DNA of 64,000 nucleotides from Candidatus Daviesbacteria bacterium RIFCSPHIGHO2_02_FULL_43_12 (lineage in GTDB: Bacteria; Patescibacteriota; Microgenomatia; Daviesbacterales; UBA10151): assembly GCA_001776775.1 (NCBI GenBank), contig MFDD01000002.1, positions 169,834 through 233,833 of the forward strand. Direction: 5' to 3'. The notes below the pieces were generated by a model. The model did not search any database, was not told where the DNA came from, and was given only the letters and a program-made list of their open reading frames with translations. Positions 19,877 through 64,000 of this stretch are shown piece by piece (within the stretch, counting starts at the first letter, position 1; each line of letters starts with the position of its first letter). A program made the position numbers and the translations under genes.

Positions 19877-19961
19877 AACTTTAGTGTAGCAGAAAAAATA
19901 TCTTAAACAAGTCTTCCTTCCTACTTGCAACAGCCAAACTTACTCTGAGATAATAGGCTTC

Positions 19962-45411: not shown

Positions 45412-47361
45412 TTACAAAGGAAGCTTCAGATCCATATCGGAAGAAAGTTCAAAGTTTGCTTTTTCTTTACCATTAATCTTCACTACATACTTATAATCAT
45501 GGGTTCCTGGCTGTTTCTGGATCAAAAGGGGATAATCCCTACCCAAAGCTCCCTTAGGGGTTGTGTATTCAAAAGTCAAAGTTAACGAATTCTGAGGACG
45601 GATCTGAATAAAAGCCTCAAAGACAGTTTTACCTAAGTCGTCTTCAATGGTTGTTACTTTCTCTTCCGACCCCTTTGACAGAGACAACCTGGCCCCTTTT
45701 GGTACATAAACCCGAACATAATCTCTATTAATACCATTTAACCAAGTTTTATACGGCTCCGGATTTTTGTAGTTTAAAGTCAACTTATGTTTGATATCCG
45801 CCCCATTAGTGTCAATCTCCAGCAGACCATCGACTGTTACATAGATATTTGATTTTCCACCGGCAAAGTTAGAGTCATTGACATGTAGATAGTCGCGGTC
45901 TGTTTGTTTTATCTCCCCAGTCCAATTCAATGCCGAGAGTGCTTGTTGGGTAGGAGAGTCGTGCATATAAAACATGATATGTTTAGCATTGGCCAGCTTT
46001 ACTCCGGCATTAATAAATTCCGGGAGTTTGTCTGTACTAGCTCCCAATGATCGCGCCAAGATCTGCTGCATCAATGTGCCAAGTATGGCTTTGCGATCCG
46101 CCTCACCCTTCTCAATAATCTGGGCATAATTTTCTAACTCATATATGACGTTTGGACAGTTACATCTTTTATCAGTCTCAGCGCTATAAGTAGTGCCAAA
46201 CACATCAATTGGTCCGGTAATCCTAATCAGCTCTTCTACAACTTGTGTATCAATTGTAATAATGCCATCAAACGGATCCTCCTTTAAAAAGCTATACATC
46301 TTTTCAAATGTTTTTAGAGAAGTCTGCAGGTCAGGAGAGAGATTAGAGTCTCTCATGGACCAGGCAGTTCGAGCTTTCCCATTTTCCTCAGGTAAATATT
46401 TGACGATTGGTGCAGGAGGTGTCAGGGGGCAAATCACGTTTAAACATACTTTAAGCAATCTTTCGTCAAGTCGATAAATATCATCTGATTTACTCGAGGA
46501 GATTCGACCTTTATCAAGACTCATAAAAGCATATGCGGTCATAAATCCTCCTGTGGCGCGTAACTCTTTATCATTTTGAAAGATAATTAAATAATTCTTT
46601 GGACTTGGTTCTCCAAGGGCGGACGGGGCAATTTTAAGAGCTGGCCTAGCCTTCGTCACCACATAGTTTGCCCCAATAATCAGATTTTTAATAATCTCCA
46701 CCCGAGATCTGACAGCTGTGTGTCCTAAACTTGCAGGGTATTTAGCAACATCTATATGTTCAACCTCAACGGATGCTTTGGCTAACTGAGGCTCGATTGA
46801 ATCTAAGTTAGGAATAGCTTTATCTAATATTTTAATAGCTTGGGTAATGCGGTCTTGTCCGGGGGTCGGATGTCCAGTTAAACCCAATTCTGTTTTATAT
46901 GGATCTAACCAGTCAGTAATAGTCAGAGCGGCTTGAATTTCATTACCGGCTGCCGAGGCGAAATGGTTTGCATCGGCATAATAATCACCAACAAAAGGGA
47001 GGACTCTAACCCAAAACAAAAAAGACAAAGAGGTCTTTAGTTGACCTATATTAGAATGAATCACTTTTAAATCACTGCGAATGCCGTCTAAGTCCTCATT
47101 TTTCACTGCTACAGACAAAGCTTTGCCGTTAACCATCAGCTTACGCACTGCACTATAAACCCCGCGGATCGGCAGATAGATGGTCAGGGTTGCGACAATC
47201 AAAACTATTAATACTCGAAAGAAAAGTTTACGTTTACTTTTCTTTTTCTCCTGGCGCTCCCTTTTATCGAGTCGCTGTAGTTTAGAGTTTAAATTTTGGA
47301 ATTTCACTAGACAGCTCCTCTCGTGGTTAAAACCGCGGGAATAGTCTTGATGATTATCCAC
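45412..47361 (-). CDS. Large membrane-anchored extracytoplasmic protein of unknown function (possibly DUF4012-like)
   Basis: 649 aa, basic N-terminus, single TM, GTG start in ORF track; sits immediately downstream of the initiating sugar transferase. Confidence 0.45.
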   Translation of the reverse strand: MDNHQDYSRGFNHERSCLVKFQNLNSKLQRLDKRERQEKKKSKRKLFFRVLIVLIVATLTIYLPIRGVYSAVRKLMVNGKALSVAVKNEDLDGIRSDLKVIHSNIGQLKTSLSFLFWVRVLPFVGDYYADANHFASAAGNEIQAALTITDWLDPYKTELGLTGHPTPGQDRITQAIKILDKAIPNLDSIEPQLAKASVEVEHIDVAKYPASLGHTAVRSRVEIIKNLIIGANYVVTKARPALKIAPSALGEPSPKNYLIIFQNDKELRATGGFMTAYAFMSLDKGRISSSKSDDIYRLDERLLKVCLNVICPLTPPAPIVKYLPEENGKARTAWSMRDSNLSPDLQTSLKTFEKMYSFLKEDPFDGIITIDTQVVEELIRITGPIDVFGTTYSAETDKRCNCPNVIYELENYAQIIEKGEADRKAILGTLMQQILARSLGASTDKLPEFINAGVKLANAKHIMFYMHDSPTQQALSALNWTGEIKQTDRDYLHVNDSNFAGGKSNIYVTVDGLLEIDTNGADIKHKLTLNYKNPEPYKTWLNGINRDYVRVYVPKGARLSLSKGSEEKVTTIEDDLGKTVFEAFIQIRPQNSLTLTFEYTTPKGALGRDYPLLIQKQPGTHDYKYVVKINGKEKANFELSSDMDLKLPL

Positions 47362-47963
47362 AGGTCATAAAGGATCGATCTTCTCTGCGCATATTGAGCG
47401 TCCATTTCGACGCGTTTATCAAAATTGATATTAGACCTGCCAGAGACCTGCCAAAGACCGGTAATCCCTGGTTTAGACGATAAAATAATCTTGACATATT
47501 CTCTTGACTCAGGGAATTTCTTTTGCTGCTCTTCTAGTTCAAAATCATAATACGCCCGATGTCCAACAAAACTCATGTCTCCTTTGATTACATTAATAAA
47601 CTGCGGCAGTTCATCTAAGGAGGTCTTCCTTAGAAACCTGCCGATATGTGTCACCCTTGGATCCTCATTTATTTTATAACTATTTCTCTGATATTCTTCG
47701 AGTAATGTTTTAAATTTGGGATCATTATGTAAAAGATCATGGGCACCTGCTACCATTGACCTAAATTTGTACATTTTAAAAAGTTTCCCGTTTTTACCTA
47801 CCCTTGGTGGAATATCCGCAATGACTGGACCTTTAGAGTCTAATTTAATCAAAAAAGCAATTACTACAAAGACCGGGGAAAGCAATATCAAAGCTGATAG
47901 GGCAATGGCGATATCCAAAAGTCTTTTTAAAAACGAGTAAACCATATTCGTGAGTGCTCTCAT
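47307..47963 (-). CDS. Small (PglC-type) bacterial sugar transferase / polyprenyl-phosphate hexose-1-phosphate transferase
   Basis: 218 aa; KRLLDI…SPVFVVIAFLIKLDS…KFRSM…DELPQFINVIKGDMSFVGHRA. Confidence 0.8.
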   Translation of the reverse strand: MRALTNMVYSFLKRLLDIAIALSALILLSPVFVVIAFLIKLDSKGPVIADIPPRVGKNGKLFKMYKFRSMVAGAHDLLHNDPKFKTLLEEYQRNSYKINEDPRVTHIGRFLRKTSLDELPQFINVIKGDMSFVGHRAYYDFELEEQQKKFPESREYVKIILSSKPGITGLWQVSGRSNINFDKRVEMDAQYAQRRSILYDLWIIIKTIPAVLTTRGAV

Positions 47964-47980
47964 TATAACTACAAAGTTGG

Positions 47981-49084
47981 TTAAATGTCGACCGGCTGAT
48001 CCTGCAACGAGTCAACTGCCGAAGAAAATTTCATTTTAAATCGTGTCTTCGAAAATTTGGCTGCATTTTTTTTGATTTCCGGGCTACTAAACTTGGAGCT
48101 ACAAAATAACACCAAAGCTTCCAGAAGGCTTTGTTCATTTGCTTGATCAAAAAATAGGCCTGTTTTTTTATTGATCACTGTCTCTAGTACCCCTCCTTTA
48201 CCAAAAGCAATTACCGGCTTACCCGTAGCTTGTGCTTCCAGCGCAGTTAGTCCAAAATCTTCCTCCCCGGGTAAAATAAGTGCACTGCAACCGGATAAAA
48301 TATCCATCCTTACCTCCTCGGTAACGGCACCCAGAAAATCTATCTCACTGCTGGCCATTTGATAGAGATCATTTAGCTTAGGACCAGTACCAATAATCCT
48401 CATTCGCCACTTTTTTTCCTTTCGAATCTTCACAAATTTATTAAAAGCTTTGATTGCCAAATCAACTCTTTTGTACTCATTGAGTCTGGCGATTACTAAA
48501 AAATAGTTACCGTCCCAAGCTTGCCATTTAGAATAATCCGAAACCTCCACAAAACCCGGTACAACCACAGCTGGCTGGTGATAGATCTTCTGGATACGGC
48601 TGCTTGCTACCTTTGACCCGGCTATCCAGTGATCAACCCGAACAGAGCTGACCCTATCGATAACTCTTAAACTGCTCAGTATCGGACGGGCCAGAATGGG
48701 TACGTTGTCAGACTGAAAGTTCCATAAAAATCGTGGCGGAGTGTAGCAGTAGCAGAGATGTCTTTGTTCTGGCTTGGTAATCACCGACTTGGCAAAACGG
48801 GTAGTAATAGAGATCACCAAATCATACCCAGACAAATCGAACTGTTCAAAAACAAACGGATAAAGGGCAAATAAGGGTTTGTATAAAATTTTCCATCCGG
48901 GAATTTTCTGCAAAAAAGAAGTCTTTATCTTTTTTACTCCAAACTGCTCTTTTATTAGAGGGTTTTCCCAATCGATTACTGAGGTATATATTACTGCCTC
49001 CGGATAAATTTCCGAGATTCCCAGTAACATTCTCTCCAATCCGCCCCACTGGACTAAATCATCATGAACAAGCGCTACCTTCAT
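47981..49084 (-). CDS. Family 4 glycosyltransferase
   Basis: EDFGLTALEAQATGKPVIAF; start moved to ATG 49084 (MKVALVHDD) giving 4-nt overlap with upstream gene. Confidence 0.8.
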   Translation of the reverse strand: MKVALVHDDLVQWGGLERMLLGISEIYPEAVIYTSVIDWENPLIKEQFGVKKIKTSFLQKIPGWKILYKPLFALYPFVFEQFDLSGYDLVISITTRFAKSVITKPEQRHLCYCYTPPRFLWNFQSDNVPILARPILSSLRVIDRVSSVRVDHWIAGSKVASSRIQKIYHQPAVVVPGFVEVSDYSKWQAWDGNYFLVIARLNEYKRVDLAIKAFNKFVKIRKEKKWRMRIIGTGPKLNDLYQMASSEIDFLGAVTEEVRMDILSGCSALILPGEEDFGLTALEAQATGKPVIAFGKGGVLETVINKKTGLFFDQANEQSLLEALVLFCSSKFSSPEIKKNAAKFSKTRFKMKFSSAVDSLQDQPVDI

Positions 49085-50196
49085 ATTGATCGATATACTG
49101 CTAGAGTCTGTTCTGCCATTTTTTTCCAACTAAATTTCGTCAATTGCTTCTTACCTTTCTTCACTAGATCGCTTCTTAATGTATCACTTCCTAACATCTT
49201 TATTATTTTCTCGGACATATCCTTTGTAGAGTACGGGTTAAAATACATCGCTCCTTCGCCTGCTACTTCCGGAAGAGATGATGTATCCGAACAAGCAACA
49301 GGACAGCAAACTGCAAAAGCTTCCAGTACCGGAATACCAAAACCCTCTTCAAAAGATGGGATCACCCGGAGGGAGGCCTTCTTTAATAGAGAAATCATCT
49401 CTTTATCCGAAACAAAGCTTGTAAAAATAATATCCGGATGGTGGACTCCAGACTTTAGTCTCTCCCAAAAATAGTGATCATGGCCAGACAATACTAACTT
49501 TAAGTATTGGTATTTTTTTCGCAGTTCCAGAAAACATTCAATCAATCCTTCAACATTCTTATGTGGATGAGCGTTTCCAAGATAAAAAATAAACGGTGGT
49601 TTAATATCAAATTTCTCCAGAACTTTTCTTACTTCCTCTTCAGTCACAGAACTTGCAAGCTTACTAAAAGTTTCTTCCACTCCCTCTAAAGTAACAACTA
49701 TTTTATCAGCAGAAACTGATGAATTATTCAATATATCATGTTTTACAAATTCCGATGGTACAATAATTTTTTCACTTTTCAAAAGAGCGGAAGACAACGC
49801 GATATTAAACCCCACCTTTTTAAGATTATAAAAAATCCTACCATGGGTTGTGGATCGTTGCATCGAAAATCGCTGATGAATTAAATCATGGATCGTCACC
49901 ACGAATTTACCTTTATAAAGAATCGGGACATTAAAGTGAGGAAAGTGCATTAAGTCTATTTTATATTTACCGATTAGATAGGGTAACTTAATCTGTTCTG
50001 CAAATCCGTACCAAGGAATATCTGCTTTTATCTTTTTGAAGTTTTCTGATTGATCAAACTTTTCAAAATCTCTGGCTAGCAAAAATACAAAGTAACTATT
50101 CTGCTTATCAATTTTTTTTAGCTCGTTTATTAGATTGCGAATGTACCTACCAATTCCTGATTCGCCAAATAGTCTTGCATCAATACCTATATTCAT
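49081..50196 (-). CDS. Family 4 glycosyltransferase
   Basis: EGFGIPVLEAFAVCCPVACS motif. Confidence 0.85.
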   Translation of the reverse strand: MNIGIDARLFGESGIGRYIRNLINELKKIDKQNSYFVFLLARDFEKFDQSENFKKIKADIPWYGFAEQIKLPYLIGKYKIDLMHFPHFNVPILYKGKFVVTIHDLIHQRFSMQRSTTHGRIFYNLKKVGFNIALSSALLKSEKIIVPSEFVKHDILNNSSVSADKIVVTLEGVEETFSKLASSVTEEEVRKVLEKFDIKPPFIFYLGNAHPHKNVEGLIECFLELRKKYQYLKLVLSGHDHYFWERLKSGVHHPDIIFTSFVSDKEMISLLKKASLRVIPSFEEGFGIPVLEAFAVCCPVACSDTSSLPEVAGEGAMYFNPYSTKDMSEKIIKMLGSDTLRSDLVKKGKKQLTKFSWKKMAEQTLAVYRSI

Positions 50197-50702
50197 TTTT
50201 TTAAAGTTTGTTTAGTCAAATTAGTAATTTTAAAGTCGTTCCCGACTTGCGCGGAAATAAAAAATAACTCATTTTCATTTACAATTTCTTCAAAACAATA
50301 CTGGATGTCATCGACTAAATCTAGTTCACCATTTAGAACTTCATCCTTATTTATCCATATCAGCTCGCCATCTTCTGTCTTGCTGCCAATTGGTAACTTT
50401 ATACTAGAAACGCTGATCTTAAAAAAACACATTACCCAGTCTTCATCGTAAAAGCCTTCAAGTCTTACAACACCACAGAATTTTATCTGTGAAGCATCAA
50501 CCTTTATGCCGGTCTCTTCTTTAGTTTCTCTAATGGCTGCACTTAAATAGTCTTCACCTGGTTCTACTCTTCCACCGATACCATTGACCTTTCCTGGATC
50601 TATTTTTTTATGAGTACCCCTTTTTAATAATAAGTAATCATCGCCGCAGTGAATAAAATTAGTAACCGATGTCTGAACTTTTCTTGTATATTTCTCCATC
50701 AT
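50193..50702 (-). CDS. NUDIX hydrolase embedded in glycosyltransferase cluster
   Basis: Nudix box GGRVEPGEDYLSAAIRETKEETGI; TTG in ORF track, ATG at 50702. Confidence 0.75.
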   Translation of the reverse strand: MMEKYTRKVQTSVTNFIHCGDDYLLLKRGTHKKIDPGKVNGIGGRVEPGEDYLSAAIRETKEETGIKVDASQIKFCGVVRLEGFYDEDWVMCFFKISVSSIKLPIGSKTEDGELIWINKDEVLNGELDLVDDIQYCFEEIVNENELFFISAQVGNDFKITNLTKQTLKK

Positions 50703-50739
50703 TAACTCTGCATTCTTCAATCTGAATTCTGCATTCCAA

Positions 50740-51612
50740 TCATACCGTAAGTTTTCTCTTCGCCATCCACCACTTAATATTAATCCCCAAGTACACTAAC
50801 CAATTTATAAAAAAGGGGTATTTTTTGGACATCTGCTTCTTATAAAAAGTTAGCATTGAGATGTAGAAAGCATCTAAAGACCTCCTGCGAGTCTCTGGGT
50901 CTGCAGTTGTTACGCTTTGTGAGTCCTTTTTTAACCCGGAAGATACCCCTTTATAGTGCACTATCGAAACACTTGGAACATATACCACCTTAAACCCGGC
51001 CTCTTTTATCCTAAAGCACAAATCAATATCTTCGGCGTATAAAAAGTAATCTTCGTCAAAGAGTCCGACTTTTTTTAAAACGTCCGCCCGAGTAAGCATA
51101 AAAGCTCCGGCGATAGCATCAACTTCGTGTGGACCGGACATATCCATTTGACGCAAATGGTAAAGACTGTCATCTTTTAGAAAATAATATTTAAATGAAG
51201 CCCACGGAGTCGGGAAGCCTCGATGAGCTGTCAAATCCAATCTACCGTCCGGAAAAACTATTTTACAGGTAGAGATCCCGACCTCAAGGTGAGCTTCCAT
51301 AAATTCAAGCATCTTAGAGATTACCCCTTTTTCTAGTTTAGTATCTGGGTTAAGTAGTAAAATATATCCTTCCTTAATTTTCTCTAAAGCGAGATTATTC
51401 CCTTTCCCAAAACCTAAATTTTCTGGATTAAGAATAAAATTAAACTCGGGAAATTCCTGCTTGGCGGTCTTGGCACTATCGTCACTTGATGCATTATCTA
51501 TTATATAAACACTGACGTCTGCCTCATTTATCACCTGCTTCACTGATGACAGACATTCCAACAGAAAATTTCCGGCGTTAAAATTGACGATAACTATGGA
51601 TAGCTTAAGCAT
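50740..51612 (-). CDS. Family 2 glycosyltransferase
   Basis: LSIVIVNFNAG…IIDNASSDDS. Confidence 0.85.
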   Translation of the reverse strand: MLKLSIVIVNFNAGNFLLECLSSVKQVINEADVSVYIIDNASSDDSAKTAKQEFPEFNFILNPENLGFGKGNNLALEKIKEGYILLLNPDTKLEKGVISKMLEFMEAHLEVGISTCKIVFPDGRLDLTAHRGFPTPWASFKYYFLKDDSLYHLRQMDMSGPHEVDAIAGAFMLTRADVLKKVGLFDEDYFLYAEDIDLCFRIKEAGFKVVYVPSVSIVHYKGVSSGLKKDSQSVTTADPETRRRSLDAFYISMLTFYKKQMSKKYPFFINWLVYLGINIKWWMAKRKLTV

Positions 51613-52792
51613 GAGCCACCTCTTTATATATATCGCTTAATTTTTGCGCTATTTGGTCCCAATCATATTTTTGTTGAACCATTTTTTTAGCGTTTTCTGC
51701 AAGTCTTGAGTATTTTTTAGGATCTTGCAGCAGCTCTATTGCCGCTTGGGCGATATCTTTTGGGTCATCCCGTATAATTACTTCTTTGCCGTCTTCGGCT
51801 TCTGTTCCACCAATGCCAATCGAGGTTGTAACGACCGGTAACCCCGAAGCAAAAGTCTCAAAATTCTTTAACCTGGTTCCATGACCGCTATAGATAGGCG
51901 TTACCAAAAGATGTGCTCCTTGATAGGCCTCTCTGACGTCTTTAACTTCTTCTATCCGAATATCTTTATTCTCAAGAGACGAAAAAAAATTCTTCGCATC
52001 CTTACCGATAATCCAGAGTTTTGCATCTTTAACAGATCTTTTAATAATCGGCCAGACTTTTTCGACCAGCACCTCCACTGCTTCTCTGTTTTGTAGCCAG
52101 GTAAAGTTTCCCAGATACATGATTACCGGTTCCTTTGACTTTTCCTTGATCTTTGCTCCGAAGAAAGTGCTGTCTACTCCATTGGGAACTATCTCCACGT
52201 TCAGTGACGGTACCTGAGTAATCATAGTTTCTCTGTCGTTGGAAGACATGGCAATTACTTTACTGGCTTGTTTCCAATATTTTAATTCCCAGAATTTTAG
52301 CTTATAAACATCTATTAAAAGAAGTGGTTTTAAAAAGTTATATTTATAATTTTCTACATAATGCTGATAAACCTTATACTCTATAGTTTGATCGACTAAG
52401 ACGATGGGTATAGTAGTTTTTGGAATATGGGGCATAACGTAAAAGGTCTCTGCATGAATTAAATCAAAACTCTGTTCGTCTAGGAGTTTAGCAACCGCTG
52501 TCTTCTCTCCACTCGCCCAGTTACGCATTACCAAAAAGGGGAAGAAGCTAAAACCAGTTCTTAAAATATTTATTATAGTCCAGGGTTTTTCCGGACGGTT
52601 AAAAACCCTAACCTCTTTGCAGAATTTTTCCAACTCTGGCGCATACTTTTTTTCGTCATCACTTTTGACCAAGCAAAAAAGAGTAATCTCGTGTCCTAAA
52701 TTTGCTAATCTTTTTATTAGATTGTAGGATCTTGTTTGCCCCCCTGTTAACAGAGGAAATGGCAAGTAGGGTGTAAGCATGAGTATTTTCAT
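51605..52792 (-). CDS. Family 4 glycosyltransferase
   Basis: GT-B pattern; MKILMLTPYLPFPLLTGGQTRSYNL N-terminus. Confidence 0.75.
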   Translation of the reverse strand: MKILMLTPYLPFPLLTGGQTRSYNLIKRLANLGHEITLFCLVKSDDEKKYAPELEKFCKEVRVFNRPEKPWTIINILRTGFSFFPFLVMRNWASGEKTAVAKLLDEQSFDLIHAETFYVMPHIPKTTIPIVLVDQTIEYKVYQHYVENYKYNFLKPLLLIDVYKLKFWELKYWKQASKVIAMSSNDRETMITQVPSLNVEIVPNGVDSTFFGAKIKEKSKEPVIMYLGNFTWLQNREAVEVLVEKVWPIIKRSVKDAKLWIIGKDAKNFFSSLENKDIRIEEVKDVREAYQGAHLLVTPIYSGHGTRLKNFETFASGLPVVTTSIGIGGTEAEDGKEVIIRDDPKDIAQAAIELLQDPKKYSRLAENAKKMVQQKYDWDQIAQKLSDIYKEVAHA

Positions 52793-52794
52793 GG

Positions 52795-54261
52795 CTATTT
52801 AATCACTGCACCTGATGTCGAAGATGGATACCTTAAATCAGCGATAACATATTTCGGAGTCTGCTCGATTACTTTGTATTTTTTTAATACGGTGGCAGTA
52901 TCATTGTCGTAGTTGGTAGAAACATAATGAGTCACCCCGAAATCTTTAATCAAATCTTCAAATGAAGCTGCAACAACTGGAAAGCCGGTTCTATTAATTT
53001 GGTATAAAAACGCCGTATCGCCATTATAGGGGGCAATCACCACAGCATCTTTCGGTAACAGTGTATCCGCCTTTCTTCCCACCTCAACAATTATTGGGTT
53101 ATTTATCTGATAAAGACCCTTAATCTCATACCAGGTTAGCCCAAGTGTTAATGATAGCAAAAAGATAGCTAGAGGAATGGTCACAATCCTGGGGAGAAAG
53201 AGCGGTAAGCCTTTTAGCATTAGCCAAAGCCCCCGGGCGGTAAAAATACAGATCGCCGGAACAATCAGTGTTTGGTAATAATCATGCTGGACATTACCTG
53301 TGGCAAAAACAATCAAGTATAAAAAAGCGCCAACTGCAAAAAGATGCAGAAACAAATTCTCGTTTTTAAGCGGTCGAAGAACTAACCCGAGAATAAAAAC
53401 AAACACTCCGACCGGAGATAATAGTTCGCGACTAAATCGGTCATTTATTATCCATCTCCAAAAAGCTGGACGAAAGCGGATTCCGTTACCATTTAGAAGC
53501 CAGGCTGAAGATGGTATCCCCTCGGGGTGAATATTAATCCATAGTCTCCAGATAAGCAGGGGCGCTAGTACCAGACTGACAAATCCAATATACTTTTTAG
53601 GGATTGGAAAGAGCCCTTTTTCTTTTAGATAATAGGAGTACAGCAGTGGTAGTGTGTAAAAGATTACTGTTGGTTTAGTTAAAAAAGCTAAAATGCTAAA
53701 AATGACCGCTAGACCAAAGGTACTTTTCGATGATTCCCATATCCAACGATCAGTAAAATAGACCATCCCTAACCCAAAAAAAATCAACGAGGGCTCAGGC
53801 AGAATAACTCGGGAGTAGTAGATACTGTACGGAAGAACAGCAAATAGCAGCGCTGCCAGAAGAGCCGTACCTTGTCCAAAGTATTTCTTAGTTAGAAAAT
53901 ACATTAACACTATAGACCCCAGGGAAAAAATTATGGAGACTAAACGAGCTAGTGGTTCACTGACTCCTCCGTGTAGTAGATAGGCCGCATAGACGACGGC
54001 ATTATATATCGGAAACTCGACATATCTTAGACGAAGTGGGTTAAACTTCCCGGTTTCAGAGATCTGAGACATATCATCTCCTTTAGGATAAAATATATTA
54101 AATCCTTCTTTATAAAAGTTACGGGCTACCGCTGCCGTATCTGCCTGCCTCCAAGAATGCCAATCGGCAATCGGACTATCTAGCTTATAAAGCCGCATCA
54201 CAAAAGCTAAGCAAAGAATCACCAAGAGCCAAAGTAGTGGTTGTTTTAAAAATTTGATCAT
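52795..54261 (-). CDS. GT-C fold membrane glycosyltransferase (ArnT/PMT/GT39-like)
   Basis: ~12 TM; WRQADTAAVARNF loop motif; start set to ATG 54261 (ATGA overlap with upstream gene). Confidence 0.6.
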   Translation of the reverse strand: MIKFLKQPLLWLLVILCLAFVMRLYKLDSPIADWHSWRQADTAAVARNFYKEGFNIFYPKGDDMSQISETGKFNPLRLRYVEFPIYNAVVYAAYLLHGGVSEPLARLVSIIFSLGSIVLMYFLTKKYFGQGTALLAALLFAVLPYSIYYSRVILPEPSLIFFGLGMVYFTDRWIWESSKSTFGLAVIFSILAFLTKPTVIFYTLPLLYSYYLKEKGLFPIPKKYIGFVSLVLAPLLIWRLWINIHPEGIPSSAWLLNGNGIRFRPAFWRWIINDRFSRELLSPVGVFVFILGLVLRPLKNENLFLHLFAVGAFLYLIVFATGNVQHDYYQTLIVPAICIFTARGLWLMLKGLPLFLPRIVTIPLAIFLLSLTLGLTWYEIKGLYQINNPIIVEVGRKADTLLPKDAVVIAPYNGDTAFLYQINRTGFPVVAASFEDLIKDFGVTHYVSTNYDNDTATVLKKYKVIEQTPKYVIADLRYPSSTSGAVIK

Positions 54262-56547: not shown

Positions 56548-57095
56548 TAGACAAAGGCTTTTTTAGACATTTTCCCAAGAAGCCAGGCGCAACTCACAAT
56601 TCCTGCCCAAACTACTAACCTAACCCACGCCGCCGAGGGGTAATAACGCAGAGTTACCTTATTGTCAAAAGTCCCTTCAGGCAAATCAAATTTTACTGCT
56701 CCATCATATTTGGGATTGTTACTTTCGTCATATGGTTCCAGTCCGTTAATATAGAGGGAGTTTCTTAATGGATAAACGTACTCTTCAAGATAGGTGCTGT
56801 GTGTTTCTACTTTAATATAAGTCACTGCTAGCTCAGGAGGATAGTTCAAACGCAGTGGCCCAAAGGGGAGCATAGTTAGCCCGGCATAATTTTTAACATA
56901 AAAAGGGATAACTTCCGGACGAAAAGAGTTCGTAAAATAAGCCTTTAGATTAGGAACCTGCCAGGTATCTCCATCAAGATTTGATCTGACTGAACTAGGA
57001 AGATCAGCTAACTGATAGACATCTTTAGGTCCCGGGATAAACATATACCCCAAAAGAAGTAATGAGAGAGCAAAAAAAGTGTTTTTTTTGATCAT
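56547..57095 (-). CDS. Hypothetical membrane-anchored protein
   Basis: 182 aa, N-terminal TM and C-terminal TM, no motif. Confidence 0.4.
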   Translation of the reverse strand: MIKKNTFFALSLLLLGYMFIPGPKDVYQLADLPSSVRSNLDGDTWQVPNLKAYFTNSFRPEVIPFYVKNYAGLTMLPFGPLRLNYPPELAVTYIKVETHSTYLEEYVYPLRNSLYINGLEPYDESNNPKYDGAVKFDLPEGTFDNKVTLRYYPSAAWVRLVVWAGIVSCAWLLGKMSKKAFV

Positions 57096-57733
57096 TGAAA
57101 AAGCCTAGACCTTCCTAGTTTATAATGCAGATCTTGAACCTCTCGGGTGCCGATCACCCTAGCCGGAACTCCTCCGGCAATATCAAAATCCACCACATCT
57201 TTCGTGACTACGGCCCCAGCAGCCACCACCGCTCCTTTGCCAATACTGACACCCGGTAGGACGATCACTCTCGGACCGATAAACACAAAGTCCCCTATTT
57301 CCACAGGTGCAACCACTGCCCGAAAGTCTTCCGAGTGAATATCATGCTCAGAATTATAGATCATGACGTCACTGGCAATATCTACAAAACTACCAATTTT
57401 TAGACTGTCCCTTCCGTCTAAAAAAGCATTTTGGCCAATAATAGTACCTTCTCCAATCTGAACTCCGGAGGGGTTAAAAAACTGCACTCCCATATGTAAG
57501 TGAGAACCGTGGCCAATTTTAACTCCGGCGATTTGGTAAAAAAACTTTCTCACAAAAAATATAGGGAAGTAACCAATTAGGCGAAGTAAGAATAGATCTA
57601 AGTCTTGAAAATAGCTCATAAATCGACTGCCAACCTTTTGTAACCCCAAGGACAAAGAGAGGGTTTTGCCCATCTTATTCTTAAAATAGAAACCGGTGTT
57701 ACTGTCCCACCCTAAATGTTCAAGATAAAACAT
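57092..57733 (-). CDS. Hexapeptide-repeat (LbH) sugar O-acetyl/acyltransferase
   Basis: Repeated [LIV]G-x4 hexapeptides (IGKGAVVAAGAVVTKDV); ATG 57733 chosen over TTG 57775. Confidence 0.75.
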   Translation of the reverse strand: MFYLEHLGWDSNTGFYFKNKMGKTLSLSLGLQKVGSRFMSYFQDLDLFLLRLIGYFPIFFVRKFFYQIAGVKIGHGSHLHMGVQFFNPSGVQIGEGTIIGQNAFLDGRDSLKIGSFVDIASDVMIYNSEHDIHSEDFRAVVAPVEIGDFVFIGPRVIVLPGVSIGKGAVVAAGAVVTKDVVDFDIAGGVPARVIGTREVQDLHYKLGRSRLFQ

Positions 57734-57784
57734 TAGATTATTATATCTTGTTTTAACAGACCAGAGCAACCTCAAACCAGTGAC

Positions 57785-58774
57785 TTACGGATACATCCCC
57801 AAGATTTCTGAATCCTTCAGTTTAGACAAATGACTCTCTTTAGCTCTTTTAGGTAGAAGAAGGGGAAGCTTAACTAGGGCACTAAAAAAAACTTTTAGAT
57901 AACTGGGGTGAGAAATTATCATCCGTAAAAGCCCCAAAAAATGCTGGCGGAGCATTGCTGGATCAGTAATATTTTTCCAGATCAATAAAAGTTGATTCCT
58001 CTGAGCGACTGAAGAGATTTTAGACCGGGAGAAATTTTCCTCAATTACTCCCTTTTGTTTATAATGCTCGACCTTTGAATCGGGATCCCAAAGGTTGAGA
58101 TAGCCTCGCTTAGTAGCTCTGTATCCTAAATCACTATCCTCTTCATAAAAGGGCGCAAAAAGTTCATCAAACCCGGTTAACTCTTCCCAAATACTTTTAC
58201 GAAACAGCCCGCTACCTCCTGAGGCCCACAACGTCTGGTGAAGTTTGGGAGACTCACCTTCCGGTAAAGGCACTTTGTAATGCCACAGAAAGCCTCGCTC
58301 AAACTTGGCCCAGGACCAGTTGCCATCTTCAGTAGCGCAACTGACACTAAATACCTTGGGGTTTTCAAAATGCGCTAAAGCTATCTTCACAGCTTCGGGA
58401 GCAGGTGAGGCATCACTATTTAAAAGAAAAAGTATATCTCCTGATGATTCCCGAACACCTTGATTAACAGTGCTGGAAAAGCCGCTATTTTGTGGCTTAA
58501 TAATTAGCTTAACCGCAGGAAAGTTTTTCCGGATGATTTCAATACTATCATCTGTTGAACCATCGTCAACTACAATCACCTCATGAATATCTTTAACCGC
58601 TAAAACACTTGGCAAATTTTTTTTAAGCTTATCTCGCCCATTCCAATTAGGTATCACAATAGAGACTTTAAAATTATTCATTGCTGGCTTCCTTAAAGAC
58701 CTCCAGGACCTGCTCGGCCATCTTTTTCCAGGAGAATATTTTAGCTTGCTCCAAGGCTTTGATGGATAACTCAT
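57785..58774 (-). CDS. Family 2 glycosyltransferase
   Basis: VSIVIPNWNG…VVDDGSTDDS. Confidence 0.85.
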   Translation of the reverse strand: MSYPSKPWSKLKYSPGKRWPSRSWRSLRKPAMNNFKVSIVIPNWNGRDKLKKNLPSVLAVKDIHEVIVVDDGSTDDSIEIIRKNFPAVKLIIKPQNSGFSSTVNQGVRESSGDILFLLNSDASPAPEAVKIALAHFENPKVFSVSCATEDGNWSWAKFERGFLWHYKVPLPEGESPKLHQTLWASGGSGLFRKSIWEELTGFDELFAPFYEEDSDLGYRATKRGYLNLWDPDSKVEHYKQKGVIEENFSRSKISSVAQRNQLLLIWKNITDPAMLRQHFLGLLRMIISHPSYLKVFFSALVKLPLLLPKRAKESHLSKLKDSEILGMYP

Positions 58775-59810
58775 CCCTCAGGCCTGCATCTTCACAAACC
58801 CGAACGATCGCATTTCTAATCTCTTCTATATTTAACGGATCAACCAATATTCCCGCCTCACCTACTATTTCTGGCAAAGAACCGGCAGTGGAAACAATCA
58901 CTGGTTTCCCCACAGACATCGCATCAACTACCGGAATACCAAACCCCTCCCATAAACTGGGAAACACAAAGGCTTTGGCCCCGTTTAGTAAATAAACTAA
59001 ATCCTCATCAGGGACAAATCCTAGGAATTTAATTTTGGTCTCAATACCCAGCCTTCTAGGCTTATCTAAAATCTCTTTAAATTTCCACCCCTGCTTACCC
59101 GGCCCGGTGGTCTTACCGCTTATTGCCAGTTGCACTCCTTCAATCGTTTTAAAAGCTTCGATTAACCTGGATAAGTTCTTGCGTGGTTGAATCGTACCAA
59201 TAAATAAAACATAATTTTTATCTAATTTATATTTAGAGCTGATCTCTTTAATCTTAGCTTCATCCTTAATCTCGATATATTTATCGCTATGTCCTGGATA
59301 GGCTACTGTTACTTTTTCTGATGAAACCTGGTAGTTTTTGAGGATATCCCGCTTAGCTGACTCAGAAATAGTGACGATATGTTGAGCATTTCTTATAGAG
59401 TACTTTGTCCAATTTTTTAACTTCCATAAGTCTTTTGCGGTCAAAGTCTCAGGAAAATGCAAGAATCCAGTATCAAAGACCATCACTACTCTTTTAACAT
59501 TAGTGAGTGTTGGGATATAGTGAGTTGGACTAAAAAACAGATCAGGCTTTATTTTAGCTCGAAAAATCTCTAGTGGTAGAGCGACCCTGGTCCATAGCTT
59601 ATTAAATTTTAAAATCTTATATTTCCACCCCTCACGCTCCTTAGGTAGATCACTTAAGGGGCTAGACGGCAGTAAGATTAAATAGTCATTTAAATGATCG
59701 ATCTGCTCTAAGTGTTTAAGTAACTCAAAGGCCACCTGCCCCGACCCAAGCCTTTGCTCAACATTTGCTTCATAACCATCAATCCAGATAAGTTTTTTAC
59801 TGCTTGTCAT
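58674..59810 (-). CDS. Family 4 glycosyltransferase
   Basis: EGFGIPVVDAMSVGKPVIVS. Confidence 0.85.
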   Translation of the reverse strand: MTSSKKLIWIDGYEANVEQRLGSGQVAFELLKHLEQIDHLNDYLILLPSSPLSDLPKEREGWKYKILKFNKLWTRVALPLEIFRAKIKPDLFFSPTHYIPTLTNVKRVVMVFDTGFLHFPETLTAKDLWKLKNWTKYSIRNAQHIVTISESAKRDILKNYQVSSEKVTVAYPGHSDKYIEIKDEAKIKEISSKYKLDKNYVLFIGTIQPRKNLSRLIEAFKTIEGVQLAISGKTTGPGKQGWKFKEILDKPRRLGIETKIKFLGFVPDEDLVYLLNGAKAFVFPSLWEGFGIPVVDAMSVGKPVIVSTAGSLPEIVGEAGILVDPLNIEEIRNAIVRVCEDAGLRDELSIKALEQAKIFSWKKMAEQVLEVFKEASNE

Positions 59811-60816
59811 TTAGTCTTTCGTAAAGAGCTACTGTTGTGTCGGCAGACTTTTGCCAGCTGAATTTTTGGACTTGTTTAAAACCTTTCGCAATCAGCTCTT
59901 TGCGTAAATCTACATCCGCCCATACCTCTTTAAGCTTTGCGGTGATCTCATCAACGTTTAAGGGGTCAACATAGCAGGCGCCATCTCCTCCCACTTCCGG
60001 AAGGGCGGAGACATTAGAGGTAATTACCGGCACTCCACAAGCAAAGCTTTCTAAAACCGGTAGTCCGAATCCTTCGTATAGTGAAGGATAAAGCAGTACT
60101 TTTGCCAGAGAATAAAGAACCGGCATTTGGGAATCTGATGGTCTTGGCATTAGTTCTCCGCTTACCACCAAGGGCAAATCCCCAACCGCATCCTTTACTC
60201 TAGCTAAATTTCGTCTCTCTCCAACCCCGCTAATTGCCAACACGAATTCTTTGGGTAGATTATATTTTTTCCGGAATTCGTCTTTAGTACTTTCGGATTG
60301 AGGCTTAAAATTTTCACTTACCCCCTCATAAATTACTTCAATCTTTTCTGCCGGGATATGAGTTAGCTCTAGTAGGTCCTGTTTTGTGGATTCGGAGACC
60401 GCGATAATATAGTCTATTTCTCTCTCTACTTTTTCCAGGCGTTCCTTATGGACCTTGATAATCGAGGGTACTGACCATTGGGGGTACTTTAGGGGAATGA
60501 CATCGTGATAGGTCGTTACTTTTTTAGCACTACTAGCTGGCTGAACCCAGTCAGAGCTATGAAAAACATCTACCTTACCGATGAACTGTTCGATGTTAAT
60601 AAATCTCCAGTTATTCATCACGGGCTGAAAAAGACTGGGCGGGATAGGTAGGGATTTAACATTCGCCAATTCACCCTTATAGGGTTTTCTGAGTGAAGTA
60701 TAAAAAAATACTATCTCTAAGTCTTTCCGTAAGGAGAGTGCTTTTGCTAGCTCTTTAGTATAGGTTGCTACCCCACCGATAAATGCTGTTTGAGATATAT
60801 CAAAACCAATTTTCAT
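59797..60816 (-). CDS. Family 4 glycosyltransferase
   Basis: [20 protein letters not shown]. Confidence 0.85.
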
Positions 60817-62231
60817 TTTAGAGTGTACTCATAGATAAAACCAACTCCAGCAAAGTCATGGGTGATGGTATTTAGATACCCCTTCCTTTCTATTGCTGCG
60901 GCCACAAAGCGCTGAGGATCAGTAATATCTACTAAATAGTCTACCAGAAAAATAGTCTTATCACCCTTTAGCTTTGTTTTTAAGTCGACTACGTCCGAGT
61001 CCCGCTGGGCAGGCATCATCTCCAGAGCTCCGAGGGTCTGAAGATTATCCTGGGCATAATACTTAAACGGCGAAAAGCTGTCGTTACTTTCAAAAAGTAT
61101 CTTTGCCTGGGGATTTCTAAGCTCCAAAAAGGACACTGCTTCTCGCCAGTTTTCTCTTTGAAATCTGGGATTAAACAGATATATACCACCAAAAATAAGT
61201 TGCGTGACGACTATGCTAGTTAGGGCAGTTTCTCTCCACTTGTGAGATAAACTATCAATCCCTAACGCTGCTAAAATCATCAAAGGACTGAGAATAAAAA
61301 GCACTCTAAAATAGCTAAAGATAGGAATCCAAAAAGAGATTATAAAACTTAAAGTTAGGGGAACTAGAAACCAATATATTAGACTGGGAATAAATTTATT
61401 TCTACCAACTACCCCCCGGCTGACAAACCATCCATAAGCCAGCCCCATTCCTCCGGCAATCAATCCATATAGTATTTTATTATAAAAACTAATTCTACCG
61501 AGTAGAAATTTCACTAAGGTGAGCCCTAAGGATTTAGCAGTTGCTTGTCCGACCACCTCTTTCCATACTGGAAAGTTAGTTGTCGTATCTATACCAATTT
61601 TTAACTGCTTAATGAGCAGCGGTAAAAAGGCCGCTCCGGCCAGTGCTACCAGTATCCATCCCTTCAAAACTTCCTTCCACCAATTCTTCGACTGGGCAAA
61701 AATCAATACTACTATTTGCGAAAGGATGGTGAGGCTGGCTACATAATCGCTGCTTAAAAGCAAGGTTGTCGATGCTCCGTATTTTAAAAACCCAAATCGC
61801 GAGAGGTTCTGGAGCTTAAGAAAATAATAAAAGCTCATGGCTGAGGCCATAGCTGCAAACTCATACATTCGCGCCTCCTGGCTATAATAAATATGTAGAG
61901 GATTCACTGCAATTAAAAGAGCCGCGGTCAGGGCCAGCTGCCTGTTTTTTATTAGTACCCCTAATTTATACACATACCAAATAGTCACCACCCCAAAAAT
62001 GACCGAGGGTATTCTGGCCGATATTTCACTAAACCCGAAAGTATGAGTCCAAATCCAAAGAATAATAAAATACCCGGGGGGATGAAAATCTGCCTGCAGA
62101 TACTGAGTTATATAATCCCAGAAGGAATTTTGTTTACTTGCCAGCAGACTAATTGCCTCATCCAGCCACAGACTTTGATTTAAAGATATCAAGCGCAAGG
62201 TCAGCCCTAAAATAAGCACGACTATAATCAT
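60813..62231 (-). CDS. GT-C fold membrane glycosyltransferase (ArnT/PMT_2-like)
   Basis: 472 aa, ~12 TM, LWLDEAISLL first-loop motif. Confidence 0.65.
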   Translation of the reverse strand: MIIVVLILGLTLRLISLNQSLWLDEAISLLASKQNSFWDYITQYLQADFHPPGYFIILWIWTHTFGFSEISARIPSVIFGVVTIWYVYKLGVLIKNRQLALTAALLIAVNPLHIYYSQEARMYEFAAMASAMSFYYFLKLQNLSRFGFLKYGASTTLLLSSDYVASLTILSQIVVLIFAQSKNWWKEVLKGWILVALAGAAFLPLLIKQLKIGIDTTTNFPVWKEVVGQATAKSLGLTLVKFLLGRISFYNKILYGLIAGGMGLAYGWFVSRGVVGRNKFIPSLIYWFLVPLTLSFIISFWIPIFSYFRVLFILSPLMILAALGIDSLSHKWRETALTSIVVTQLIFGGIYLFNPRFQRENWREAVSFLELRNPQAKILFESNDSFSPFKYYAQDNLQTLGALEMMPAQRDSDVVDLKTKLKGDKTIFLVDYLVDITDPQRFVAAAIERKGYLNTITHDFAGVGFIYEYTLK

Positions 62232-62986
62232 TTTTGTTCGCTTAAGGAATATAGATGCAGCTCAACTAAGATTCGATAATACATTAACCCGAGTACCAAA
62301 CCAATTCCCCACCAACCGTCTAAGTATCCCCTATGCTTTATAAATCTTACCAAAAACTCCCTGGTTGGCTGCCAAATAAGTCTGAGTGGAGAAAACCGAA
62401 TACCTTTAGTCGATAGATTTTGGGCTTCAATCTTTGCATAACGGCGCTGCCTTGACAAAAACTGGCTGAAATTGTCATATCCAAAATGAAGCAAAGCATT
62501 ACTTTCTATGGCCGGTAAATTATATGCCTCACCTTCGATTTTCGGGTAAGTATGGATTATTCTTGGCCAACTAACTGCCCCTCTTCTAAAAAACCGTATC
62601 TGTCTATCGGGCCAAAAATTAGTATGCGAAATCCACTGACCGGCAAATATATTTTTTCTAGGAATATTAATTACTGAATATTCATTACTGGCTGCAAACT
62701 CTCTGAGCTTAACCTTCAAAGATTCGCTCAGCTCCTCATCAGGATCCATAATCAAGATCCAGTCCCCTGAGGTTTGTGCTATAGAATAATCTCTAATTAA
62801 TTCCACAAAAGGCACAAAAGCATGTGCTTGGTATTTTGCCCTAAACTCTTTGCTCAAGTCTTGGACCCTGGGTTCGCTGCCTATATCTATAATCACGATC
62901 TCTTCTGCAAAGTTGCTAATACTTTGAAGAGATTTGCGAAGTTTTTCAGTTTCATTAAAAACTACATAAACTACAGATATTTTCAT
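62228..62986 (-). CDS. Family 2 glycosyltransferase
   Basis: MKISVVYVVFNE…IIDIGS, DPDE. Confidence 0.75.
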   Translation of the reverse strand: MKISVVYVVFNETEKLRKSLQSISNFAEEIVIIDIGSEPRVQDLSKEFRAKYQAHAFVPFVELIRDYSIAQTSGDWILIMDPDEELSESLKVKLREFAASNEYSVINIPRKNIFAGQWISHTNFWPDRQIRFFRRGAVSWPRIIHTYPKIEGEAYNLPAIESNALLHFGYDNFSQFLSRQRRYAKIEAQNLSTKGIRFSPLRLIWQPTREFLVRFIKHRGYLDGWWGIGLVLGLMYYRILVELHLYSLSEQK

Positions 62987-63927
62987 TTTTCTCCAATCTG
63001 AAGAAGCAGCTCTTTATAGCGCTTGGCTATTATATTCCATGAAAACCTTTCGGCTTGCTGGCGAGGTTTATTTTCCCAATTTCTTTGAAGAGCTAGTTTC
63101 ATAGCCTCGGCAATTATTTGTTCATTTTCGGCGTCAATTAATATTCCCGCATCGCCAATAATCTCTTTCCTAGCTCCATCTAAGGGAGCCACCACCGGTA
63201 ACCCCGAAGCCATTGCTTCTAAATAAACTATTCCAAATGATTCCCTGTCCCATGATAGTAGTGTAAAAAGATCTGCGGCGCGGTAAAGTTCGGCCATATT
63301 AGAATAATCAAATGATTTAATGCTAAATCTATCCCCCAATAGTGATTGGCCTAGCTCACGAAGAGATTGCTCCTCTTCACCTTCGCCTACAATCAAAAGC
63401 GACCCCTGGTCTAATTTCGCAACAGCTCTAATCGCTCTTTCGTGATGTTTGTTTTTAGTGAGGGCACCAACTGCAAGAATAACTGGACGAGCTAATTTTA
63501 AATCTAGCTTAGAACCTTTGGGATTAAATTTATCTAAGTCTACCCCATTGGATATTTTTTCAATGCGTACCCCCAGACTTCTGAGACTAGCCCACTTCCT
63601 CATTGTTTCAGTCAGAGCAATAAAAACATCCGGTCTGACCAAAATATTCCACCAGTCATCCCTGCCCATACCACTATGCCCAGAAATAACCATTTTGTAT
63701 GGTTTTATCAGCCGACCCAAAGAAACTTTCAAGCTTTGCAACCTACCATTAATAGGGATCACTACATCCGGATTCAAGGAGAGAACCTTGGTCAGGTTAT
63801 CCGCATCCTTGCCGGATAAAACCTCCAGCTGCATAGAATTTTGTAGATGAGAGGTTAGTTCTCTAACAAAAACTTCCGCTCCTCGTTTAGATGTTTCTTG
63901 ATATCTGCTTAAAAATATAGTTTTCAT
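62983..63927 (-). CDS. Family 4 glycosyltransferase
   Basis: LEAMASGLPVVAP motif; ATG 63927 (MKTIFLS) preferred to TTG 63966. Confidence 0.75.
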   Translation of the reverse strand: MKTIFLSRYQETSKRGAEVFVRELTSHLQNSMQLEVLSGKDADNLTKVLSLNPDVVIPINGRLQSLKVSLGRLIKPYKMVISGHSGMGRDDWWNILVRPDVFIALTETMRKWASLRSLGVRIEKISNGVDLDKFNPKGSKLDLKLARPVILAVGALTKNKHHERAIRAVAKLDQGSLLIVGEGEEEQSLRELGQSLLGDRFSIKSFDYSNMAELYRAADLFTLLSWDRESFGIVYLEAMASGLPVVAPLDGARKEIIGDAGILIDAENEQIIAEAMKLALQRNWENKPRQQAERFSWNIIAKRYKELLLQIGEK

Positions 63928-64000
63928 TTTTTTACTACAACCACTAAATGTGGTCCCCACATCCAAAAAGGATAAACGCCTAATTTACCCAAAACTTTAA

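Follow-up and report, generated by a model that had tools for sequence, protein, structure and literature searches.

We report a long array of glycosylation genes in Candidatus Daviesbacteria bacterium RIFCSPHIGHO2_02_FULL_43_12 (GCA_001776775.1) that, at roughly even odds (about 50%), directs the assembly of a conserved wall-associated glycopolymer or lipoglycan through an undecaprenyl-linked pathway of the Wzx/Wzy_C type. The array occupies positions 45412-63966 of the minus strand in a 64,000-nucleotide (nt) stretch of contig MFDD01000002.1 (169,834-233,833), here referred to as the window, and would form the 3' two-thirds of a longer operon that spans at least 21 genes and ~21 to 26 kb. 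Its product would be a "common antigen" of Microgenomates rather than a strain-variable capsule. Candidate Phyla Radiation (CPR) bacteria, or Patescibacteria, account for a large part of bacterial diversity and live attached to other cells, and the chemistry of their envelopes is obscure; the Microgenomates among them are known nearly exclusively through metagenome-assembled genomes (MAGs). The host is a tiny bacterium from groundwater, uncultivated so far. The Wzy_C protein of the array is identical to one of Candidatus Daviesbacteria bacterium RIFCSPHIGHO2_01_FULL_44_..., which NCBI places in the Microgenomates group of the Patescibacteria group. An earlier note on this DNA had taken the host to lack an outer membrane, in keeping with a Gram-positive-like CPR host (PMC6744442). 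A literature search on Microgenomates, Daviesbacteria, and Patescibacteria found no description of the locus and yielded family-level notes only, on the enrichment of DUF4012, PMT_2, and Wzy_C in CPR (PMC6744442 among the sources).

The array genes were assigned with Pfam, all matches lying above the gathering scores. With an alignment of GTC1, a membrane glycosyltransferase of the array, as the query, a scan of one genome per GTDB species found a relative in at least 574 genomes; the locus comparison covers the best 80 of these, with each open reading frame (ORF) assigned to its best-matching window protein. Presence counts include only the loci that cover the expected gene position and are given first for Daviesbacteria-like loci and then for other Microgenomates. 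A 302-kb ENA contig (L085), which shares 10,945 nt with the window without a single mismatch, extends the array past the window edge. From the 5' end of the array to its 3' border, the window contains the following genes.

63924-64000, minus strand: the last 77 nt (3' end only) of a gene for an S-adenosylmethionine-dependent methyltransferase of 265 amino acids (aa), whose start lies past the window edge and is seen on L085.
62983-63927, minus strand: GT4_j, a GT4 glycosyltransferase (GT-B fold) of 314 aa; Glycos_transf_1, 93 bits; the exact protein is on the public record; found in a subset of related loci.
62228-62986, minus strand: GT2_i, a GT2 glycosyltransferase of 252 aa without a transmembrane (TM) segment by hydropathy; Glycos_transf_2, 41.6 bits.
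60813-62231, minus strand: GTC2, a GT-C membrane glycosyltransferase of 472 aa; PMT_2, 53.4 bits.
59797-60816, minus strand: GT4_h, a core GT4 of 339 aa by Pfam; 36/40 and 17/19 loci.
58674-59810, minus strand: GT4_g, a core GT4 of 378 aa; Glycos_transf_1, 120.6 bits; 40/41 and 20/20 loci.
57785-58681, minus strand: GT2_f, a variable GT2 of 298 aa (start verified); Glycos_transf_2, 89.5 bits; 13/42 and 1/21 loci.
57092-57733, minus strand: LbH, a core WcaF-like acetyltransferase with a left-handed beta-helix, 213 aa; Hexapep; 44/44 and 22/22 loci.
56547-57095, minus strand: hyp182, an orphan of 182 aa that matches no family; 45/45 and 12/23 loci.
55651-56547, minus strand: GT2_e, a variable GT2 of 298 aa by Pfam, with one C-terminal TM segment (259-285); 23/45 and 17/23 loci.
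54258-55676, minus strand: WzyC, a core polytopic protein of the Wzy_C family (WaaL/Wzy/PglL superfamily), 472 aa; Wzy_C, 36.2 bits (cut-off 31.7); 49/49 and 20/23 loci.
52795-54261, minus strand: GTC1, a core GT-C membrane glycosyltransferase of 488 aa; PMT_2, 48.3 bits (cut-off 26.1), and PMT, 33.9 bits; the public gene call begins at a later ATG than the 503-aa ORF.
51605-52792, minus strand: GT4_d, a core GT4 of 395 aa by Pfam; 49/51 and 23/24 loci.
50740-51612, minus strand: GT2_c, a variable GT2 of 290 aa by Pfam; 25/50 and 21/23 loci.
50193-50720, minus strand: a NUDIX hydrolase with an intact Nudix box; NUDIX, 57.1 bits; 0/72 related loci.
49081-50196, minus strand: GT4_b, a core GT4 of 371 aa by Pfam; 48/48 and 21/22 loci.
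47981-49084, minus strand: GT4_a, a core GT4 of 367 aa from the ATG at 49084 (start verified), by Pfam; 47/48 and 17/19 loci.
47307-47963, minus strand: PGT, a small monotopic PglC-like polyprenyl-phosphate glycosyl-1-phosphate transferase of 218 aa; Bac_transf, 205 bits over the full length.
45412-47307, minus strand: a DUF4012 protein of 631 aa (649-aa ORF); DUF4012, 81.9 bits; 46/46 and 14/16 loci.
44772-45410, minus strand: recO, the 3' border marker, which starts 1 nt past the DUF4012 stop; RecO_N and RecO_C; 41/46 and 11/16 loci.

The ORF list and its translation give 18 consecutive minus-strand ORFs between 45412 and 63966, and Pfam agrees gene by gene with the content and order that the earlier note had read from them. 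Its count of 13 GT2/GT4 transferases needs amending: there are 10 (six GT4 and four GT2), or 11 including the GT2 past the window edge, and 13 is the total of glycosyltransferases in the window part (10 GT2/GT4, two GT-C enzymes, and the initiating transferase). That the array is a single tightly packed, co-directional unit, probably an operon, is borne out by overlaps at 12 of 19 junctions (1 to 26 nt, chiefly of the 4-nt ATGA type; counted with the start codons of public gene calls) and by a widest gap of 51 nt; no change of strand breaks it. It is these start/stop overlaps that support an operon. Co-orientation is weak evidence because almost all genes between 16 and 64 kb lie on the minus strand, and GC skew is negative across the window. 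A consensus scan of the array for promoters and terminators returned no more sites than shuffled sequence. The best promoter-like match within the array (TCGACA-18-TATAAT, 11/12, 47991-47962, minus strand) falls in the 17-nt gap between GT4_a and PGT; its -10 box overlaps the annotated PGT ATG, and 18 nt further on (47945) there is another ATG in frame. This site could be a candidate internal promoter for PGT-DUF4012-recO, though site counts are within chance.

As the earlier note had expected, the array begins beyond the window. On L085, the same strand continues with overlapping junctions through, in order, the 265-aa methyltransferase, a fifth GT2 (266 aa), and a Wzx flippase (419 aa; Polysacc_synt); further upstream on that strand are proteins of 468 aa (11 TM segments), 1029 aa (multiple TM segments), 123 aa (four TM segments), and more than 1170 aa (C-terminally anchored), none of which matches a Pfam family. 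The remark that no flippase is present here is therefore literally true inside the window and wrong for the array, in which Wzx is the third gene past the edge; since that gene is present on an identical contig, its absence is an artefact of where the window ends. From Wzx to DUF4012, the unit comprises 21 genes and ~21.4 kb, or ~26.5 kb once two upstream membrane proteins and recO are counted. One complete Daviesbacteria chromosome measures 820,589 bp, and the glycan unit amounts to ~2.5 to 3% of such a genome. The earlier note's impression of a large investment for a small genome thus holds, at ~21 to 26 kb of roughly 0.8 to 1.1 Mb.

The three unannotated membrane proteins ahead of Wzx (L085:2145-7136) have features of their own. 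The 123-aa protein is GtrA-like in size and topology yet has no GtrA match. The 1029-aa protein has multiple TM segments in its N-terminal domain, then a large ectodomain and an anchor at the C-terminus, an arrangement resembling the YfhO/AftD-type GT-C architecture; its sole match is a weak one to the NCBIfam MmpA model, and it has no PDB sequence relative. In the 468-aa protein, an AADDW motif follows the first helix. The operon may encode four GT-C-like enzymes instead of two.

Conservation of the locus is the chief result beyond the earlier note. The homologues of GTC1 number more than 5,500, the best of them ~60% identical and from Daviesbacteria; within the best 80 loci, its identity is 47 to 63% in Daviesbacteria and 42 to 46% in Gottesman-, Shapiro-, Curtiss-, and Amesbacteria. 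Almost everywhere in these loci, spanning five candidate phyla of the Microgenomates group, the order is (GT4_j-GT2_i-GTC2)-GT4_h-GT4_g-(GT2_f)-LbH-hyp182-(GT2_e)-WzyC-GTC1-GT4_d-(GT2_c)-GT4_b-GT4_a-PGT-DUF4012-RecO. A comparison of presence and absence among related genomes, proposed by the earlier note as a check, thus finds the core order kept in the best 80 of at least 574 genomes. Eleven genes form the core (PGT, DUF4012, five GT4 genes, the acetyltransferase, hyp182, WzyC, and GTC1). Ten of them occur in about 88% or more of the covered loci, in Daviesbacteria-like and other groups alike, and the eleventh, hyp182, occurs in every covered Daviesbacteria-like locus and was detected in about half of those outside. 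Median identities of core proteins are 47 to 66% among Daviesbacteria-like loci and 35 to 57% outside, compared with 52% and 37% for RecO. The variable parts are GT2_c, GT2_e, GT2_f, and the 5' block, and many Daviesbacteria carry one or two additional unannotated proteins of 450 to 620 aa after GTC2. Because orthology holds enzyme by enzyme across candidate phyla, it implies that these organisms would share one conserved glycan structure with lineage-specific decorations.

A number of TPA_asm MAG records that carry the locus (L006, L009, L011, L012, L014, and ~35 more) are titled "uncultured Gammaproteobacteria bacterium" or "uncultured Pseudomonadales bacterium." Their synteny and identities of 43 to 61% are typical of Daviesbacteria/Microgenomates, so these titles are evidently wrong placeholders.

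The setting of the array also points to the wall. Downstream and on the same strand follow recO, glyS, a gene for a 294-aa unknown protein, and then genes of the division and cell wall (dcw) type: mraZ, mraW, a penicillin-binding protein gene, Mur ligase genes, mraY, ftsW, murG, ftsQ, ftsA, and ftsZ. A relative whose DUF4012 protein is 61% identical shows the same succession as far as ftsW. We favor a wall-associated glycopolymer or lipoglycan because of the class-wide conservation, this dcw linkage, and the exopolysaccharide (EPS) context of DUF4012, and from sequence the first two lean toward such a polymer over protein O-glycosylation. In the window, mraW is at its usual place after mraZ (39540-40430). 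Several Daviesbacteria, the relative just named among them, carry an mraW/rsmH-like methyltransferase gene (Methyltransf_5) inside the array, on the opposite strand between GT4_b and GT4_a (L002-L004, 13743-14654, minus strand; L088, 7204-8145, minus strand), and L002-L004 have a second opposite-strand methyltransferase gene as well.

The gene for the DUF4012 protein follows PGT in 60 of the 62 loci that cover this position, and in the capsular polysaccharide (CPS)/EPS locus of Bifidobacterium longum 105-A another member of the family is encoded right behind the priming transferase (PMC5412050). For these two reasons, the protein is likely a pathway component. DUF4012 is also listed among the families common to CPR and Gram-positive bacteria (PMC6744442). 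The earlier note had proposed this protein, as a 649-aa exported product, for a plausible glycan acceptor, a role that we rejected in view of its conserved partnership with PGT. In its AlphaFold model (pLDDT 77.7, pTM 0.76), an N-terminal TM helix is followed by a long helical stalk (25-230), an alpha/beta core (237-460), and, at the C-terminus, a beta-sandwich; most of the invariant residues, among them many Asp, Arg, and Lys, fall in the core. Searches of the PDB with the single sequence, a profile, and the model gave no whole-protein match, only weak matches to the beta-sandwich, and three segments searched separately in Pfam at E ≤ 10 matched nothing besides DUF4012.

The other orphan of the core, hyp182, is hydrophobic at its N-terminus, continues with an ectodomain of ~130 aa, and ends in a TM segment; it has no Pfam or NCBIfam match. 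Its family is small, with just 96 clusters in a set of 1.84 billion representative proteins. Almost all of these matches are stand-alone proteins or fragments of up to ~200 aa, and two are longer (357 aa and a repetitive protein of 1110 aa).

At the cytoplasmic end of the predicted pathway, the PglC-type initiating transferase named in the earlier note stands out, with Bac_transf matching across the whole 218-aa protein. PGT has a single N-terminal hydrophobic segment (residues 8-45), aligns only with the C-terminal catalytic domain (~250-455) of WbaP/WcaJ models, and contains the motifs S-P, KFRSM, DELPQ (the Asp-Glu dyad), and PGITGLWQV. These features mark it as the short monotopic form, which has none of the additional N-terminal TM domains of WbaP/WcaJ, and it would catalyze the putative committed first step. 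The best NCBIfam match of LbH is the WcaF family EPS acetyltransferase (87.9 bits) and that of GT4_d is TIGR03087 (143.9 bits), both below cut-off. Four GT4 proteins (47981-49129, 49081-50196, 58674-59810, and 59797-60816) pass the gathering score of the "GT4-conflict" family PF20706 with 28 to 33 bits; these matches lie beneath far stronger generic GT4 matches over the same residues, and a conflict-system role was rejected. The NUDIX gene that the earlier note had counted in the cluster is indeed there, yet its absence from all related loci led us to reject it as an integral member of the conserved pathway. A LysE exporter gene between recO and glyS (44114-44740) was likewise found in 0/61 related loci, and both genes look like insertions specific to this genome.

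On the outer face, three conserved or partly conserved membrane enzymes are predicted. WzyC, which the earlier note had described as Wzy/ligase-like, scores above the Wzy_C cut-off, and the top PDB match of its AlphaFold model (pLDDT 78.5, pTM 0.83) is the O-antigen ligase WaaL (7TPG; E 2e-6, TM score 0.60), followed by FtsW; single-sequence and profile searches gave no meaningful PDB sequence match. It reaches 23.8 bits against the repeat-unit polymerase model TIGR04370 (cut-off 40). Judging by its model, WzyC is of the WaaL fold class and would serve the pathway as polymerase or as ligase. A TDNDFL motif in WzyC may take the place of the His-Asn motif of WaaL, a point to which we give no weight. 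The module Wzx/GT2/Wzy_C elsewhere in the window (16414-19930, minus strand), which the earlier note had placed at 16.4-19.9 kb, encodes a Wzx of 442 aa (18602-19930), a GT2 of 340 aa, and a Wzy_C protein of 389 aa and has no initiating transferase of its own; its Wzy_C protein shows marginal similarity to WzyC (27% over 79 residues).

The two ArnT/PMT-like GT-C enzymes of the earlier note are GTC1 and GTC2, both of which match PMT_2 above threshold, and public homologues ~60% identical to GTC1 are named "glycosyltransferase family 39" or "ArnT family." Each has ~9 to 12 TM segments, a C-terminal outer domain, and acidic residues in the first outer loop. In GTC1, that loop holds an invariant WHSWRQADTA motif and an invariant DD pair; in the alignment columns after TM1, D56, D77, and D78 are invariant and D48 is nearly so. 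GTC2 has an LWLDEA motif directly after TM1 and weak matches to Agl23 and a mycobacterial mannosyltransferase. BLASTP detected no similarity between the two proteins, single-sequence searches gave no PDB relative for either, and a 30-sequence profile of GTC1 likewise retrieved none (no ArnT, PMT, or Emb). Archaeal-type N-glycosylation was considered and rejected, as GT-C matches to STT3/Agl23 score 19 to 38 bits against cut-offs of 126 to 450.

From this gene content, which is the observed part, we infer each step of a pathway by family membership. PGT would load a sugar-1-phosphate onto undecaprenyl phosphate at the inner membrane face, and the five core GT4 enzymes together with lineage-variable GT2/GT4 enzymes would lengthen the glycan. 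Decoration by the WcaF-like acetyltransferase and the methyltransferase would follow. The Wzx flippase encoded just past the window would then transfer the glycan to the outer face, where the WaaL-fold WzyC may polymerize it or ligate it to an acceptor. The two PMT_2-type GT-C enzymes may attach further sugars from polyprenyl-phosphate-sugar donors, with the DUF4012 protein and the 182-aa orphan as possible extracytoplasmic accessory factors.

Several observations weigh against a wall-associated glycopolymer or lipoglycan made in this way. At least 10 transferases are many for one repeat unit; such a number fits a non-repeating oligosaccharide and would equally suit protein or lipid glycosylation. 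The earlier note had found no chain-length regulator, and neither a Wzz/polysaccharide co-polymerase (PCP) family nor an LCP (LytR_cpsA_psr) ligase was detected in the 64-kb window plus 10 kb upstream; LCP ligases are nonetheless common in CPR, with 1,266 genomes reported to have the family (supplement of PMC6744442), which counts in favor of our reading, and a copy elsewhere in this genome is likely. In NCBIfam, no GT2 is recognizable as the polyprenyl-phosphate-sugar synthase that would supply donors for the GT-C enzymes: the GT2s give at most weak partial matches to the ArnC, GtrB, and PgfS models, including GT2_e with its C-terminal TM segment. Because no array protein reaches any curated NCBIfam cut-off, no sugar specificity or named orthologue can be assigned. 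Finally, the dcw linkage draws on the window and one relative, all within Daviesbacteria.

Some of these points would suit a serious rival, general protein O-glycosylation, which we consider somewhat unlikely. In that case, WzyC would be an O-oligosaccharyltransferase of the PglL/WsaB/WsfB type that transfers a non-repeating undecaprenyl-diphosphate-linked oligosaccharide en bloc to Ser, Thr, or Tyr of secreted proteins (pilins, S-layer proteins, or giant surface proteins, for example), while the PMT_2 GT-C enzymes would attach individual sugars to the proteins or to the glycan. The Wzy_C family includes such transferases and the WzyC model has a ligase fold; so many transferases would suit a long glycan without repeats, and no chain-length regulator was detected in the region searched. 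Taxon-wide conservation of a glycan has a precedent in the general O-glycosylation of Bacteroidota (the Tannerella cluster), and the second Wzx/GT2/Wzy_C module in the window could provide another pathway's polymerase. However, WzyC matched neither PglL_A nor any other oligosaccharyltransferase-specific Pfam family (E ≤ 0.01), solely the generic Wzy_C at 36 bits, and sequence searches linked neither GT-C protein to a solved PMT or ArnT structure. The array has no acceptor gene linked to it, its 649-aa neighbor being the conserved DUF4012 partner of PGT, and the dcw linkage points to the wall.

Less probable still is a secreted or loosely attached EPS or capsule, made by an ordinary Wzx/Wzy pathway and used for attachment to host cells or surfaces. 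The combination of PGT, glycosyltransferases, Wzx, Wzy_C, and a WcaF-like acetyltransferase is typical of EPS loci, the B. longum locus with DUF4012 is of this kind, and the best of the weak NCBIfam matches are EPS and PEP-CTERM-associated transferases. Surface-polysaccharide loci commonly differ from strain to strain, whereas the transferases here are orthologous and syntenic across candidate phyla and conserved like RecO; there is also no tyrosine kinase/PCP pair, and two or more GT-C enzymes would be unusual in such a locus. That the array instead juxtaposes two or more pathways by chance on the leading strand of a gene-dense genome (a 5' module of GT-C, GT2, and Wzx, say, beside a 3' module centered on PGT) is very improbable: nearly all window genes do share the minus strand, the 5' part (GT4_j-GT2_i-GTC2, Wzx, and the methyltransferase) is much less conserved than the 3' core, and relatives carry the opposite-strand methyltransferase genes inside their arrays, but the only PGT and the array's only Wzx (another being encoded at 18602-19930 in the window) lie at opposite ends, so that each half needs the other's step, and 4-nt start/stop overlaps run all along the array, the 5'/3' junction included.

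Known systems resemble the array in part. The cwps locus of Lactococcus lactis and the streptococcal gac loci are one-strand operons of 20 to 30 kb with GT2/GT4 enzymes, a lipid-linked intermediate, a flippase, extracytoplasmic GT-C enzymes, and a wall-bound product. The array is like them in its long one-strand architecture, its predicted outer-face GT-C steps, and its division into conserved and variable parts. Those loci, however, begin with a WecA/GacO-type initiator, and their backbone depends on rhamnose synthesis genes and an ABC transporter, whereas here there are a PglC-like Bac_transf protein, Wzx, and no rml genes; nothing in them corresponds to DUF4012 or the 182-aa orphan, and no GtrB/GacI-type donor synthase is recognizable here. 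Enterobacterial common antigen, encoded by wec genes, is made in diderm cells by a Wzx/Wzy-dependent pathway with WecA, WzzE, and few transferases, and its trisaccharide repeat is placed on several acceptors. The taxon-wide conserved gene set of Wzx/Wzy type, acetyltransferase included, is shared, but here there are 10 to 14 transferases, no Wzz in the locus, GT-C enzymes, and a monoderm-like host. In the slg systems of Paenibacillus alvei and Geobacillus stearothermophilus (WsfB/WsaB), and in PglL/TfpO systems, a lipid-linked glycan built by a PGT and several transferases is flipped and then moved by a Wzy_C-domain enzyme. The array offers a Wzy_C-family transferase candidate and, much as with slg, a Gram-positive-like envelope; those systems adjoin a known S-layer or pilin gene or act on its product, and their sugars have been identified, whereas no acceptor is linked here.

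Two further comparisons concern single components. The B. longum 105-A CPS/EPS locus (cpsD-DUF4012-wzz) places DUF4012 immediately after the priming transferase, as the array does; its priming enzyme is long and WbaP-like, wzz comes next, and the locus is strain variable with insertion sequence elements, whereas here the PGT is short and no Wzz is found (PMC5412050). ArnT (GT83) and protein O-mannosyltransferase (GT39) are like the window GT-C proteins in the PMT_2 match, in topology, in the acidic residues of the first outer loop, and in the C-terminal outer domain, yet the latter match no solved ArnT, PMT, or Emb structure by sequence (nor, for GTC1, by profile). Taken by its gene content, the locus would be distinct from its known analogues in the short initiator, in having no Wzz/LCP in the locus and no recognizable polyprenyl-phosphate-sugar synthase, and in two conserved orphan components.

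Other envelope-related genes are scattered through the window. One for a surface protein with CHB_HEX_C_1/Fn3_assoc domains, longer than 856 aa, runs off the left edge (2-2569, minus strand), and genes for a LysM protein (8021-8782, plus strand), a VanZ-family protein (14278-14892, minus strand), and a protein with a glucodextranase domain-B fold (15699-16430, plus strand) follow. The UDP-xylose module that the earlier note had placed at 26.4-28.3 kb was not confirmed and is doubtful. Its first gene (26418-27320, plus strand) encodes a 300-aa UDP-glucose dehydrogenase homologue that keeps the Rossmann motif and the catalytic Cys (GQKCFPKD), lacks the entire C-terminal UDP-binding domain, and scores just under the NCBIfam subfamily cut-off. 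The adjacent short-chain dehydrogenase/reductase (27348-28295, minus strand) falls far short of the cut-off of every model it matches, those of dTDP-glucose dehydratase, GalE, and ArnA/UXS among them.

As far as the evidence goes, the locus follows an ordinary biochemical logic, and its value lies in the conservation pattern and not in a new mechanism. A bolder and distinctly unlikely extension is that the core makes an undescribed essential envelope polymer of all Microgenomates, with DUF4012 and the orphan replacing Wzz/LCP in chain-length control or attachment; if this were true, DUF4012 would be a new class of extracytoplasmic glycopolymer-assembly enzyme shared with Actinobacteria. In either case, the locus gives a defined context for the function of DUF4012, a family also widespread in EPS loci of Actinobacteria. 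The conserved PGT and GT-C enzymes offer handles for heterologous reconstitution, and the array offers a marker locus for comparative genomics. The operon is a strong candidate to encode the principal surface glycan of these cells and as such would bear on their host recognition, phage receptors, and antigenicity.

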